Shown in pieces: positions 24,384-29,052 of a stretch of 64,000 nucleotides of DNA. The stretch lies in contig CAWBCP010000008.1 in NCBI GenBank assembly GCA_963787355.1, forward strand, positions 327,682 to 391,681, given 5' to 3'. The notes below the pieces were generated by a model. It saw nothing but the letters and a program-made list of their open reading frames with translations, ran no database searches and was not told the DNA's origin. Both the position numbers and the translations under genes were made by a program. Position 1 is the first letter of the stretch; each line of letters begins with the position of its first letter. Origin of the DNA: an uncultured Planctomycetaceae bacterium (lineage in GTDB: Bacteria; Planctomycetota; Planctomycetia; Pirellulales; PALSA-1355).

Positions 24384-25939
24384 ATGGTTCGCCCTGCAAC
24401 TTGGCTGTCGTCGGTTACCATGGGCTTGGCGTTGGCCTGGCAAGCGTCGCCGTGCTCGCCCAAACCATTCTTCCGGAAAACAAACAGGCGTCGGCCAAGT
24501 TGGCGCCGCACGACGACGCTCGCGAGTGCGACGACGCCGAGTGCGACGACGCCGAGTGCGATGCGGCCGAGCACGATGAGAGCACTCCGTGCAAAGGCAA
24601 GTGCAAGGGCGAGTGCAAGTGCGAGGGCGAGTGCAAGTGCAAGGGCGAGTGCAAGTGCAAGGGCGAATGCAAGTGCAAGGGCGAGTGCAAGTGCAAGGGC
24701 GAGTGCAAATGCCCAGCGGCCAAGGCCGATTCGAAGCCTGAAGCGACCGTCGACAAGGATGTCGTGCCAGCCTCGATCGACTCGGTCGACGAAGCGGATG
24801 CGGACGACGAAACGCCGCCCGTCGCCGAGGACTTCGGCACCAGCAGCCACGTCGGCAACGGCGTGGCCGAAGTGCCCATCTCCGAGCTGATCAAAGAGCG
24901 CTACCCCAACGGCTCGGTGCGCATCGAGCGCCGCGCCACGCAAGACGCACAGGGCAACTACGTCAACCACGGCTCGTGGAAGATGTGGGACGAACGGGGC
25001 AACCCCGTGGCCCAAGGCTCGTACGACATGGGCAACCGCACCGGTCTGTGGACCCGCTGGTATCGCAACGGCCAGGACGCCGAGCTGTTCGGCCAGACGC
25101 CGTACTCGCAATTCCCGGCTCCGTACATCTCGCAGGCCTCGTTCAAGCACGATCAGCTCGACGGCTTGTGGACGATTCACGACAGCAAGATGCGCAAGAT
25201 CAGCCAGATCCGCTTCGCCGACGGCAAGCGGCACGGCACGGCCAACTGGTGGTTTGCCAACGGCCACAAGATGCGCGAGATCGAATATCGCGACGGTGAC
25301 CTCGACGGCCAGTACCTCGAATGGAATCCCGAGGGCAAGCTGACCATCAAGGACACCTACCAGACCGGCCATAAGCTGGCGGCGAAGCTGAGCAATCATC
25401 CCAATGGCTCGAAGAAGTCGGAAGGCATGTACTTGTTCGCCAAGGAAGTCGAACAGAGCCCCGACGACTGGTGGAGCTGCAAGCTGATGGTCACCAACCG
25501 GGCCGGCCACGAAGAGCGGCACGGTGCCTGGAAGAGCTGGTACACCAACGGCCAGATCCAGCTCGAAGGCAACTACGAGCACGACGTGCAAGTCGGCACG
25601 TTCACCTGGTGGCACGCCAACGGGCAGAAAGCGCAGGAAGGCCGCTTCGACCACGGCAAACAGGACGGCGTCTGGACCTGGTGGCATGCCAACGGTCAGA
25701 AGTCGATCAACGGCGAATACACGCACGGCAATCCGACCGGTCGCTGGACCTGGTGGAAGGAAGACGGCCGCGTCGTGCAATCGGCCGACCTGTCGCACTC
25801 CGACGGCGTGGCCGTCGAGACCCTGCCCACGACGCCCGGCGACAGCCTGATACCGCGGCCGAACGTGCCTACGACGCGGGAGAAGTCGTTGTTACCGCGG
25901 GCCCAGGCACCCTCGTTCGGCAAGCCCATCAAACGCTAG
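24384..25939 (+). CDS. Secreted MORN-variant repeat (YwqK-like) protein with Cys-rich tract (frameshift ~24450)
   Basis: RBS AAGGAG and signal-like MVRPATWLSSVTMGLALAWQ. Repeats such as GxWTWWHANGQKxxEGxY. N-terminal (ECDDA)x3 and (KGECKC)x6. Confidence 0.88.
24524..24712 (+). repeat. Coding tandem repeats: 15-bp x3 (ECDDA) and 18-bp x6 (KGECKC)
   Basis: GAGTGCGACGACGCC at 24524-24568 and AAGGGCGAGTGCAAGTGC at 24605-24712. Confidence 0.95.
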
Positions 25940-25970
25940 AGCGCGACGACGGTCGCACGCGAAGCAATCG

Positions 25971-26010
25971 AAACCCGCCGGCCGCGCCATGGCCGGCGGG
26001 TTTTTTTTTT
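25971..26010 (+). terminator. Rho-independent terminator
   Basis: AAACCCGCCGGCC-loop-GGCCGGCGGGTTT hairpin followed by a long T run, after the stop at 25939. Confidence 0.92.
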
Positions 26011-26150
26011 GCGCTTCGAGCACGGCCGGCTCGGCCGGTCGGCCCGCGGAGCCGCTAGCGGAGAATCGCCTCGGCCGGCAGCCCAAGGCTGCCGCGAAGA
26101 GCCCGCGATGCGGGCCGAAAAAAGGCGTTGGTTCGGGGTGAAAATCGCCC

Positions 26151-26179
26151 TTGACCCGGTTTTGCGATTCTCATATCCT
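26151..26179 (+). promoter_or_regulatory. Sigma70-type promoter not followed by a credible ORF
   Basis: TTGACC (26151-26156), 17-nt spacer, TATCCT (26174-26179). Confidence 0.65.
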
Positions 26180-26185
26180 CCCGCC

Positions 26186-26491
26186 TCACGACGCCGGACG
26201 GCGAGGGGCCACGCCGAAAAACGGGGCCAAATCGAGCGTTCGGCCGACGGCAAAACAATCACGACAATCCACGTGGATCGGTCTGCACGGGGAAGGCCCC
26301 CTGGGCTTTCCTGCGGACCACGAAGCGGTCCGTTGGCATGGACGCCGGCGGTACGCTTCGGAAGCAAGCTGGCTGCGGCGCGTGGGGTCGAGAGTAGGGT
26401 GCGCAAGCGCCGCGAAGCGTCCAATCGCTCCCGGATAAGGTTGTTGTCCTCTGCCCCCCTGGGACACAGCCTTTCCGGGGGCCTTTTTTTT
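26186..26491 (+). ncRNA. Candidate ~300-nt structured non-coding RNA (family not recognised)
   Basis: Own promoter and terminator, multiple nested helices with G-U pairs, no protein-like ORF. It lies between a terminator and a convergent gene. Confidence 0.6.
26427..26491 (+). terminator. Long hairpin with C-rich loop followed by T8
   Basis: GCTCCCGGATAAGGTTGTTGTCC pairs with GGGACACAGCCTTTCCGGGGGC, then TTTTTTTT. Confidence 0.75.
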
Positions 26492-26547
26492 GCGCCGTTG
26501 CCCTGCCGGGCAGATCGCCGCGCACTCGGGTGAATCGCGTCGCGTCG

Positions 26548-28311
26548 CTACGATGCCATCCGCAGCACCAGCGTGAAGCAAGCGCCTTCGCTCGACGGCT
26601 CGTGGCGCAGATCGCCGCCCATTTCGCGCGCGCAGCCGCCGGCACAGCGCTAGTCCCAAGCCGACTCCCGGCGCCGAGTGGGCCGCCTCGTGCGCCGACT
26701 TGCCAAACGGGCGAAACAGCAATCGCCTTCCGCCAGCTGAGATGCCCGGCCCGTGGTCGCGCAGGCGAATCCAGAGGCGGCCGTCATTCTGAGTCATCGA
26801 CAGTTGCAGCGTGCGGTCGTCTGCCGTGGCCGCGTATCGACACGCATTGTCGACGAGATTGAACAGAATCTGCTCGACGATGGCAGGATCGGCCTGCACG
26901 CGGCGTTCCAGCACGCCGTCGGCCGGCTCGATCGACAGGGCCAGTTGGGCGTGCGCGGCGCGATCGGCCAGCCGCTCGGTGGACACGTCAAGCAGTTCGC
27001 GGACGCTGACAGGGGACGGCCGTTCGATCCGGCGCCGCTCCAGTCGGGCGTACGCCAGCACGTTGGCCACGAGATGTGTCAACCGCTCAGCCTCGACGCG
27101 AAGCGCGTGCGCAAGTAAGCCTGGCGCCGGTCGTCGTCGCTGACCATGCCTTCGCTGAGCATTTCGGTATACATGCGAAACGTCGTGAGCGGCGTGCGCA
27201 GTTCGTGGGTAACCGCCGAGACGAACGCCGCGCGCCGTTCGGCCAGGCCGATCGCGCCGCCCAGCAGCGCCGCCACAGCCACCGCCGCCACGGCCATGGC
27301 CGTCCAGGCGATGACCAACGACAGCCGCAAGGGCGACAGCAGCGCGTCCGCCTCCGCGACACCGGCTGCCCCGGGGATCAACTGCACCGGCAACGATGCC
27401 AGGCGGCGAACGTCGGCTACCTGGCTTGCGTCGACAATCGGCTCGACGGTCTCCTGCGGGAGCAAGTCGGCAACTTCGTCCAGCAACTCGCGCCGGATGA
27501 CCGGCCAATCGAGCCAACAGCCTTGCAACACCGTGCGACTTCCGAAGACTGCGCGGCGCAGCAAGACCAGCTCGCCGTCCAGCCACCGCGGCGTCATGAT
27601 CGATGCCCGGGCTTCGCCGGCCGACGCCTCCTGCGCGTCGTCGCGCGGATTCGGCAACGCCGGTGGCGCCAGCGCGCTATTTGACATGATGAAGCGTTGT
27701 CGCGCCTGAAACTCCGTTTCACTGCGACCGAGTTGGCCGTTCGAGCTCGCTCGTTGTCGGTCTGCTTGAGCGGGGAACGAAGCAATCGAAACCGCCGCCG
27801 GCTCGGCCTGCGGCAGTTCGGCCAGCAGACGGGGAACGTCGACCAGTTTTTCCATGCGAGCCAAAAATGCACGATAGCGATCGATTTCGGCGCCCGCGAC
27901 CCCCGAGGGCGAGGATCCTATGGAGGGGGGCAATTGCGGCGAGCTGACGTGTCCCTGCGTATCGATCTGAAAGTGCATGCGAACGCCGTGCGGCGGCGGT
28001 ACGAACAGCGGCCCGCCCGGGTCGTTGAGCGGCGCGGCGATCTCGTTGGCCTCGGGGCGAATGAATCGGGTGCCGGGCCGCAACGAATGATAGTTCTGCG
28101 GCGGCCGGGCCTCTTCGCCCAGCAGCGGGGCCACGAACGAATCCATCCGCCAGAGCGCCAATCGCACGCGCTCCTCGAGATCGGCACGGCGGCTGGCCGC
28201 GATCTGATCGCGCTCGGCCTCGAGCGCCGAGACGCTCAGCCAGCCCACCGCCAAGGCCGTCGCCGCCAGCAAGGCCGCAAACGCAGTCCAGATTTGCCAG
28301 GCACGACGCAT
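26548..28311 (-). CDS. Membrane sensor histidine kinase (frameshifts ~27100 and ~26630)
   Basis: TM helices, H-box VTHELRTPLTT, NLVDNACRY, DHGPGI, GVGLGL. Confidence 0.92.
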
Positions 28312-28325
28312 GGGGGGCTCTCGAT

Positions 28326-29052
28326 TCAGGCAGAGGCCGGAGGAACGGTGGGCACGGCCGGCGCGGCAAACATATAACCTTTGCCGCGCACGGTCAGCAC
28401 GATGCGGGGATCGTTCGGATCGTCGCGGAATTTCTGGCGCAGCCGGGCGACGTGCACGTCGATCGTGCGGGTCGACAATCCGCGCGGATCGAGCTGCCAT
28501 ACGCGGCGCAGCAGCTCCTCGCGCGAAATGGCCCGGCCAGCGTTGGCCGCCAGGTAGCGGAGCACCTCGGCCTCCTTGTCGGCAAGCTGGAAGCGCGCCG
28601 CCGTCGGAAAATCGCACTTCGCAGCGGGCCAGATCGGCCACCACTCCCGGCAGCTCGATCCGCGCGACGTCGCGAGGCCGCTCCGGCGTGCGCCGCAGCA
28701 CGGCTTCGACCCGCGCCAAGAGTTCCTTGACGCTGAACGGCTTGACGACGTAGTCGTCGGCACCCAGGCGAAGCCCCGCGACCCGATCCTGCTCGTCGCC
28801 GCGAGCGGTGAGGATGATCACTGCTTGCGTGGGGCGCGCCTGCCGTACGGCGCGCAGCAGGTCGAGGCCGTCGCCGCCGGGGAGCACGAGGTCCAACAAC
28901 AGCAAGTCGTACGACCGCGAAAGCGCCAGCTCACGGCCCACATCGCCGCGAGCCGCCTTGAAGATTCGATAGCCGGCATGCCGCAAGGCGTCGACGATGC
29001 CGCGGCGAATGGCGGCATCGTCTTCGATGACGAGAACGGCCTGGGGTGACAT
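28326..29052 (-). CDS. OmpR/PhoB-family response regulator (frameshift ~28600)
   Basis: VLVIEDD, LLDLVLPGGDG, GADDYVVKPFS, then RTIDVHVARLRQK...TVRGKGY in the shifted frame. Confidence 0.93.

Follow-up and report, generated by a model that had tools for sequence, protein, structure and literature searches.

The window analysed here is a stretch of 64,000 nucleotides (nt) from the genome of an uncultured Planctomycetaceae bacterium (assembly GCA_963787355.1, contig CAWBCP010000008.1; hereafter genome G000, 65.9% G+C, completeness score 72%). Between a MORN-repeat gene and a converging histidine kinase gene it carries, at 26186-26491 on the plus strand, what is almost certainly a real, independent, single-copy non-coding RNA gene with its own promoter and terminator, and a member of a real family. 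An initial annotation, made from the letters of the sequence, had pointed out the signals that delimit this gene, and they were borne out. The proposed sigma-70-type promoter TTGACC-N17-TATCCT (26151-26179) is the sole sigma-70-like site in 25000-28000 (one, against 0.3 +/- 0.7 in shuffles), and both proposed terminators were found: that of the upstream gene (25970-26004, then a T run), with the promoter about 150 nt further on, and that of the RNA, detected as a hairpin plus T8 at 26456-26491, with a complete helix at 26427-26482. A search of G000 for twins of the promoter (TTGACN-N16-18-TATYCTNCC) matched this locus only, and the RNA stretch is likewise present there in a single copy.

The same annotation had seen no protein-like open reading frame (ORF) between promoter and terminator. 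Taken literally this does not hold, as mechanical ORFs do cross the region, two on the plus strand (26151-26438, 95 aa; 26009-26533, 174 aa) and one on the minus strand (26186-27586, 466 aa); such ORFs are expected on both strands at 65.9% G+C. Its sense does hold: in an alignment of 38 homologues, the lengths of insertions and deletions do not keep to threes, and the helices show paired changes, which rules out coding.

The plus strand of 26186-26491 has a minimum free energy (MFE) of -154.6 kcal/mol (z = -4.26), which none of 100 dinucleotide shuffles equalled, whereas the minus strand shows no excess folding (z = +0.09, 51 of 100 shuffles as good). Covariation was assessed in the 38-sequence alignment, with 35 sequences for the columns of the core. 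The 3' hairpin, P6, has 22 pairs, with 93.4% of cells paired and 8 pairs changed on both sides; on any of five measures, none of 500 shuffles reached its values, and slid controls are 41-60% paired. The core has 32 pairs in five helices, 92.6% paired, with 18 pairs changed on both sides (83 cells), and again no shuffle out of 500 was as good (slid controls about 37-60% paired, 38-47% for the core). Since the aligned sequences are kin, these shuffle counts are not probabilities, and the covariation case rests on the slid controls and on the number of distinct pair types. U-G pairs are kept in 29/35, 31/38 and 36/38 sequences; as they would be A-C mismatches on the opposite strand, they fix the RNA strand as plus. 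The initial annotation had chosen this strand from its G-U pairs, and the conserved pairs and the strand-specific folding agree with it.

The fold supported by covariation is branched, with five separate helices and two branch points (Table 1), and the unconstrained MFE structure already contains P3, P3a, P4, P4a and P6 (-154.6, versus -153.7 with the helices enforced). Several helices had been paired by eye. One of them, GGGAAGGCCC/GGGCTTTCCT, is P3a and gains support from covariation, and the A/C-rich linker described as unpaired is so in the supported model, where it lies between the variable 5' domain and P2. GCGGACC/GGTCCGT is possible but not preferred (80.9% paired, a level matched by 228 of 500 shuffles); the partner of GCGGACC in the supported fold is GGTCTGC at 26280-26286. 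The bases assigned to GCCGGC/GCTGGC around GCTT-CGG-AAGC belong to the covarying P4 and P4a, and TGGACGC/GCGTCCA, put forward as the closure of a multibranch domain, conflicts with P4a, which it overlaps by two pairs. CCGGACG/CGTTCGG and GCGGCGC/GCGCCGC occur in the MFE structure of this sequence, both in domains that are unalignable between genera (the first ~75 nt of the RNA and the 55-120 nt before the 3' module). A closing helix GACGC (26190-26194)/GCGUC (26417-26421) is weakly supported (own versus cross duplex -14.39 versus -13.55; 89 of 2000 permutations as good). Finally, the suggested pseudoknot between the C-rich and the G-rich loop was not upheld, the G-rich loop being part of a variable domain that lacks conservation even among members of the genus.

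Sequence conservation is concentrated at the 3' end. The final 78 nt have a mean identity of 86%, with CCAAUCGCUCCCG and GCCCCCCU invariant in 38/38 homologues. The loop of the terminator hairpin, CTGCCCCCCT, which had been noted for its C-richness, is invariant from G40 to T47 in all 38; at the tip of a stable helix, it is the most strictly conserved part of the RNA.

The RNA had been described as an orphan and uncharacterised. The latter description stands, as no Rfam family covers it; the former does not. It belongs to an uncatalogued family of the class Planctomycetia, comprising Pirellulales and Planctomycetales. Among 41 relatives (G000 included), 38 show it by blastn, at a single main locus per genome, and a covariance model recovers it in one more that blastn had missed (G027, E = 9.9e-14), for a total of 39/41. 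It was not found in G029 (95% complete). The other exception, G018, is from the same family of bacteria and shows no blastn match and a marginal match (E = 0.025) to R1, our covariance model of the 3' module; 359 bases of that genome, about the size of the RNA gene, read N and may mask the locus.

In a sample of 151 genomes of the class, R1 matches 64, among them 34/35 from the families of the window's own order, 26/35 from a family of the other order (f18), and 1/1, 1/2 and 1/35 (the last marginal) from f102, f107 and f103, respectively. No match was obtained in f104 (0/30), f105 (0/5), f106 (0/2) and f108 (0/5) of this sample. In a sample of 151 genomes from the phylum, the six with matches are G000 and 5/6 genomes of f18. 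An exact-pattern scan of 185,579 species genomes returned at least 119 stretches; of the 80 matches listed, 79 carry a Planctomycetota-lineage name and one is labelled "uncultured bacterium". Names among the matches listed include Pirellulaceae, Lacipirellulaceae, Thermoguttaceae, Bythopirellula, Aeoliella, Pirellula, Planctomicrobium and Fuerstiella, of which Bythopirellula lies in Pirellulales, and Planctomicrobium and Fuerstiella in Planctomycetales. R2, the covariance model of the core (5' domain), detects this domain in 67 of 100 pattern loci outside the set from which it was built, and the R2 match is upstream on the same strand in 10/10 loci compared by eye.

The family is modular: one part alone, the terminator hairpin with its invariant loop UGCCCCCCUG, (U)GCCCCCC(U), is common to all members. 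Predicted lengths at family loci with a recognised promoter run from 79 to 449 nt (median 308), of which a few intermediate values may stem from promoter-like words inside the RNA. Most members, including that of the window, have a structured 5' domain of 150-350 nt (P2, P3/P3a, P4/P4a) before the terminator hairpin, and in most the hairpin is preceded by CCAAUCG (CCAATC at 138/151 loci, the loci having been chosen by a pattern starting at ATCGC). The shortest forms, of 79-84 nt (L103, L140, L166, L132 and L123), consist only of a 5' tail of ~20 nt, CCAAUCG and the P6 hairpin. In Planctomicrobium-type forms (~107-109 nt) there is one extra helix, GAUGAG with CUCAUC, the latter being the counterpart of CCAAUC. 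GATGAG is found upstream at 4/5 CUCAUC loci versus 3/146 others; because the five loci are close kin, this amounts to essentially one evolutionary event. The long forms of both orders share a hairpin with the loop C-A-N-G-G-A-N-G, whereas medium forms have a different loop. The C-rich loop is thus the sole element present in every form, including those of ~80 nt, and for this reason the idea that it is the active part of the RNA has gained weight since the initial annotation.

The promoter is also a family trait, conserved across the 38 aligned homologues and recognised as one type at 143/151 loci (TTGAC, 16-19 nt, TAnnn[T/A] and a GC-rich discriminator, for which at least four G/C within six bases were required in all 143). 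Four of the eight loci without a recognised promoter have too little flank. GC-rich discriminators are typical of Escherichia coli stable-RNA promoters under growth-rate or stringent control, and by analogy the discriminator suggests a link of this kind for the synthesis of the RNA.

Table 1. Parts of the RNA gene and its promoter (window coordinates; counts refer to aligned homologues unless promoters are named)
Feature	Position	Strand	Remarks
A-rich stretch, GAAAAAAGG...GAAAATCGCCC	26119-26150	+	Directly 5' of the -35 hexamer; A-rich there in most of the 38 homologues; possibly an UP-like element
-35 hexamer TTGACC	26151-26156	+	TTGACC in 105/143 recognised family promoters
-10 hexamer TATCCT	26174-26179	+	Family consensus TATTCT (94/143); TATCCT in 7/143
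GC-rich discriminator CCCGCC	26180-26185	+	CCCGCC in 55/143 promoters
Predicted RNA, 306 nt	26186-26491	+	Start 7 nt after the -10 hexamer, end at the U8 tract; ends predicted from promoter and terminator
Variable 5' domain, lineage-specific hairpins	26186-26259	+	Only the first bases, UCACGA, conserved; hairpins in the MFE structure
P2, mini-hairpin AUCC-ACGU-GGAU	26267-26278	+	88.4% paired; two C-G pairs invariant in 35/35 (CC...G.G); outer pairs weak
P3, GGUCUGC with GCGGACC	26280-26286 with 26313-26319	+	7 pairs, 98.8% paired; U-A to C-G in 2 sequences
P3a, variable hairpin inside P3	26290-26297 with 26305-26312	+	8 pairs, 7 changed on both sides
P4, CGAAGC with GCUUCG	26321-26326 with 26355-26360	+	6 pairs, 5 changed on both sides, 94.3% paired
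P4a, hairpin inside P4	26330-26337 with 26344-26351	+	7 pairs, 4 changed on both sides, 93.4% paired
P4a closing pair and loop, C-A-U-G-G-A-C-G	26337-26344	+	Third and seventh positions vary, remainder invariant
Variable domain	26361-26416	+	Here holds the GCGGCGC/GCGCCGC hairpin with G-rich loop (in the MFE structure); length and sequence differ even within the genus
CCAAUCG, directly 5' of the terminator helix	26421-26427	+	Unpaired in the model; invariant in 38/38
P6, terminator hairpin, 22 pairs	26427-26482	+	Base GCUCCCGGA/UCCGGGGGC and top GUCC/GGAC nearly invariant; middle covaries
Apical loop CUGCCCCCCU, six consecutive C	26451-26460	+	G40-T47 invariant in 38/38; kept in the second order and in the 79-84 nt forms
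U8 tract of the intrinsic terminator	26484-26491	+	T run after the helix in 37/38; L048 shows none

Our searches set the RNA apart from catalogued families. At gathering thresholds, Rfam 15 gives no match in the whole 64-kb window. Between 25900 and 26700 at E <= 10 there are 19 weak matches, 18 of them on or near the upstream terminator and one, of 13 bits, on the terminator of the RNA. The RNase P RNA (C4:970316), transfer-messenger RNA (tmRNA; C13:146427) and signal recognition particle (SRP) RNA (C4:75702) of G000 lie away from it. With these housekeeping RNAs located elsewhere and with variable neighbours, we agree with the initial annotation that this is neither a leader nor a tRNA, tmRNA, RNase P or SRP RNA. 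The computational grounds on which its proposal could have failed did not materialise: homologues were found, covariation is present, and the folding beats shuffles. Rfam offers no match.

It had also named a divergent 6S RNA as the identity that would remove the novelty. G000 indeed seemed to be without 6S RNA, as the Rfam model RF00013 finds nothing in it at E <= 1 and blastn of the 6S RNAs of two relatives against it gave no match, and the RNA studied here has a strong promoter. However, RF00013 matches at another locus in 13/41 relatives (5 above the cut-off), and 12 of these 13 also carry our RNA (in G003, for instance, at C1:6010876 versus C1:205639). A 6S match is also missing from 25900-26700 at E <= 10, the fold is branched and not a rod of ~180-200 nt with a large central bubble, and the lengths in the family span 79-449 nt. 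The occurrence of both RNAs at separate loci of the same genomes excludes a divergent 6S RNA, to which we leave next to no probability. A likeness to 6S and Ms1 RNAs remains in that all are independently transcribed, conserved stable RNAs, ~300 nt being close to the size of Ms1; they differ in that the relatives have a separate 6S RNA, the fold is branched, and nothing links this RNA to RNA polymerase.

The genomic neighbourhood was compared at 151 distinct loci (162 minus 11 duplicates), setting aside the two largest clusters of neighbours, which are spurious ORFs across the RNA itself. The commonest neighbours are a nucleotidyl-transferase gene (25/151 loci), a SIS+CBS gene (22/151) and a MORN gene (16/151). 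Since the neighbouring genes are not conserved, the RNA is an independent gene and not a leader. Two other readings are very improbable: that the stretch acts in cis, as the leader or attenuator of a neighbouring gene, and that it is conserved as a coding or antisense part of the converging kinase gene. The minus-strand frame of the kinase ATPase domain is open across the region down to 26186, and at the 22 loci mentioned the SIS+CBS gene follows in the same direction. Nevertheless, nearly all members have a terminator with a T run, neighbours differ between lineages (the largest group being the 25 loci above), and the indel pattern argues against coding; the lack of excess folding and the A-C mismatches already described for the minus strand speak against an antisense element.

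Upstream of the RNA in the window lies a gene (24401-25939, plus strand) for a 512-aa protein with MORN_2 repeats (PF07661); the MORN-RNA gene order is conserved in only part of the range of the family. The converging gene (26553-29052, minus strand) codes for a hybrid histidine kinase whose domains fall in two frames. ORF 27079-29052 holds the receiver and HisKA domains, and the frame of ORF 26186-27586 holds HATPase_c, at about 26614-26887; a frameshift, a pseudogene or an assembly error near 27080-27230 is suggested by this split. The HATPase_c frame is open antisense across the entire RNA gene, where a gene caller could annotate a spurious C-terminal extension.

What the RNA may do was considered in the light of its conserved parts. 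Our tentative reading is that it is a trans-acting, chaperone-independent small RNA (sRNA) that pairs through its C-rich loop. It would then act as a post-transcriptional regulator, with the exposed six-C loop pairing with single-stranded, G-rich segments of mRNAs, ribosome-binding regions among them. Such G-C-rich pairing would have the strength to do without Hfq or ProQ, synthesis of the RNA may follow the growth rate or the stringent response, as the GC-rich discriminator would have it, and in long forms the 5' domain could modulate the stability, partner choice or availability of the 3' module. In favour of this reading are the invariance of the loop, also in the second order, the 79-84 nt forms that reduce to a short 5' tail and the hairpin, and the fact that searches of G000 found neither Hfq nor ProQ.

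There are precedents for such a mechanism. In RsaE/RoxS of Bacillota and sX13 of Xanthomonas, the apical loops are C-rich and, for the most part without help from Hfq, base-pair with G-rich ribosome-binding regions. The RNA studied here shares the C-rich apical loop with them and is not homologous; the only match of the sX13 model in the region, at 29.6 bits (gathering threshold 50), is on the terminator of the upstream gene (25931-26008) and not on the RNA. Another likeness is to the 6C RNA of Actinobacteria (6C/B11 in Mycobacterium tuberculosis), also a small, highly conserved RNA of a high-GC lineage with a C-rich loop. It differs in that our RNA does not match the Rfam 6C model, comes from another phylum, and carries its C-rich loop on the terminator hairpin; it has one such loop (26451-26460) against the two or more that define 6C, and most of its family members have a structured 5' domain of 150-350 nt that is absent from 6C. 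The 6C sRNA is described as binding mRNAs directly via C-rich loops (runs of at least six C), in interactions that appear chaperone-independent (PMC6486639), and as being strongly transcribed from a SigA- and SigB-dependent promoter in Corynebacterium glutamicum (PMC5014011).

We also compared literature on other motifs. In a table of Weinberg 2010, the "Rhodopirellula-1" motif has a "y" in the cis-regulatory column, is assigned to Proteobacteria and Planctomycetes, and has no Rfam accession; judging from this table entry, it is unlikely to be part of our RNA. Full-text literature searches returned no description matching this RNA. We conclude that it is a new family within a known kind, that of stand-alone regulatory sRNAs.

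Several observations weigh against the base-pairing reading. The lack of matches to Hfq (PF17209) and ProQ (PF04352) in G000 does not prove that they are absent, as this genome scores only 72% complete. Antisense matches of the RNA in G000 are at chance level (best E = 0.3, blastn-short), and the 11-mer complementary to the loop, CCAGGGGGGCA, has 8 other sites there, which is uninformative: one is in a terminator-like hairpin and the others in open-frame stretches, 5 of them in similar-looking genes. Over 3482 crude start regions, the mean duplex energy with the loop is -16.29, versus -15.61 in gene interiors and -15.94 for a reversed seed; start regions thus hardly stand out from controls, in a comparison biased by a choice of start codons that favoured G-rich Shine-Dalgarno motifs. 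The word AGGGGGGCA occurs 70 times in G000 versus 10 for the reversed word, mostly as Lys-Gly-Gly codons. No loop complement of at least 8 nt was found in the RNase P RNA, tmRNA, SRP RNA or rRNA region. CCAAUCG does not qualify as a universal seed, the equivalent stretch being paired in Planctomicrobium-type forms. Moreover, the base and the top of P6 are conserved in sequence on both strands, beyond what pairing alone demands, and recognition by a protein would account for this no less well than base pairing.

Some C-rich or G-rich words of G000 were seen in other contexts. A block around CCAGGGGGGCAT, flanked by closely similar sequence, recurs at five sites (C5:864795, C5:505666, C7:134123, C12:266396 and C13:516421); these look like paralogous genes on the opposite strand, with the block reading ATG CCC CCC TGG. 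A terminator-like hairpin, AAGGGGGGCA/TGCCCCCCTT with a T run, lies at C5:572698-572750 and is preceded by a second CCAGGGGGGCA. G6/C6 words are also present in ordinary terminators. A 15-nt same-sense copy of TCCAATCGCTCCCGG at C12:81638 is not followed by a C-loop hairpin and looks coding.

The conservation of P6 bears directly on another explanation, in which the RNA is part of some other RNA-protein particle, or an RNA of housekeeping type, with the invariant stem and loop as protein contacts; candidate partners would be RNA polymerase (as for Ms1), the ribosome, a KH-domain protein or a nuclease. In its favour are the sequence frozen on either strand of P6, at base and top, and in CCAAUCG, the single copy, the large structured 5' domain, the strong conserved promoter with a GC-rich discriminator, of the sort typical of stable-RNA genes, and the presence in nearly all genomes of one order (34/35 and 39/41). 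Yet we regard it as unlikely: no conserved neighbouring protein gene suggests a partner, a scaffold RNA would not usually vary so much in length (79-449 nt), and the RNA was not found in 87/151 genomes of the class, for which it is therefore not essential.

The loop of P4a raises a further alternative. Six of its positions (C78, A79, G81, G82, A83 and G85, in first-row numbering) are invariant in 35/35 sequences while its two N positions vary freely, and C-A-N-G-G-A-N-G appears to resemble the consensus of CsrA/RsmE sites. The RNA could then be a partner of CsrA, with this loop as a high-affinity site, that titrates CsrA, is stabilised by it or is gated by it. A like hairpin recurs in long forms of the second order; CsrA (PF02599) has matches in 41/41 relatives (2-17 each, 9 in G000) and in 151/151 genomes of the class; Hfq and ProQ were not found in G000; and ANGGA occurs 82 times in the 38 RNAs, versus 52.9 expected. 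We nonetheless consider this doubtful, the match to the consensus being a putative one. CsrB and RsmZ repeat GGA many-fold, whereas here one GGA is conserved in a loop and GGA in total is only 1.22-fold enriched (328 versus 268.5 expected in the 38 RNAs). The 79-84 nt forms have no such hairpin and the medium forms a different loop. CsrA is equally multiplied where the RNA is rare (6-11 copies in f103, with the RNA in 1/35, marginal; 3-7 in f104, with 0/30), and csrA lies within the fetched flanks at 1/151 loci. With CsrB/CsrC and RsmX/Y/Z the RNA thus has in common a stand-alone gene with its own terminator, a CsrA-encoding host and one loop that appears to fit the CsrA/RsmE consensus; it differs in having one such loop and not many, in short members without the hairpin, and in the lack of csrA linkage or co-distribution. 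No Csr/Rsm family is among the Rfam matches at E <= 10 in the region. The literature agrees that CsrA is widely found in Planctomycetota, with up to 15 paralogues in some genomes (PMC13443453).

The csrA copies of G000 include those at C12:47987, C13:601621, C1:46827 and C9:552495, plus five more. The leader of the best-scoring paralogue (C12, upstream of 47987) has GCCCAACA-N-AGGAGGGGC a few bases before the ATG, and AGGAGGGGC recurs in the csrA leaders of 14/20 relatives (L182-L199) as well as G000. As a target of the RNA this leader was rejected: it offers only 6 + 2 pairs with the loop, and a strong Shine-Dalgarno sequence or CsrA autoregulation explains it equally.

A combination of the two mechanisms, which we rate as rather improbable, is a two-part riboregulator of a hitherto undescribed type, in which the universal six-C hairpin would be the effector and the added domain a sensor whose GGA hairpin docks a CsrA paralogue. 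Docking of CsrA, or pairing of the GGA loop with UCCA beside the effector, would switch the effector on or off; in Planctomicrobium-type forms the corresponding pairing would be GAUGAG with CUCAUC. The contact between UGGA in the P4a loop and UCCA is possible, but in Pirellulales-type forms TGGA is found upstream at 62/110 loci with TCCA versus 23/41 without it, showing no association.

Public RNA data give little indication of expression. The sampled words of the stretch do not reach a share of one half in any RNA run, the best share being 0.10. Contigs at >=80% likeness come from four metatranscriptome runs of four studies (25, 1, 6 and 4 contigs). Most of them fall on 26411-26497; one run also covers parts of the core, and two contigs join the core to the 3' module, skipping the variable domain. 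These contigs stem from relatives and cannot show ends, strand, level or habitat; they cover only conserved parts, and some extend beyond the terminator, which does not favour the base-pairing sRNA proposed above. They are a weak hint of expression at most.

Planctomycetota are ecologically widespread and have an unusual cell biology, and our literature searches yielded no description of a regulatory RNA specific to them; for the entire PVC group, a review table gives 8 distinct sRNAs. The RNA described here is suited as an entry point, being single copy, present in nearly every Pirellulales genome searched and in most Planctomycetaceae-type genomes, and strongly covarying, with a C-rich loop conserved more strictly than most protein motifs. 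The indispensable part can be read off its natural size series (79 to 449 nt). In practical terms, a covariance model of the 3' module would keep gene callers from placing spurious ORFs across the locus, as with the kinase frame in the window. The family provides a handle on post-transcriptional control in bacteria where Hfq and ProQ appear absent and CsrA is multiplied (2-17 copies). If true, the two-part model gated by CsrA would connect base-pairing control without Hfq or ProQ to the expanded CsrA network of Planctomycetia, and would make the RNA the first global RNA regulator to be known from Planctomycetota.

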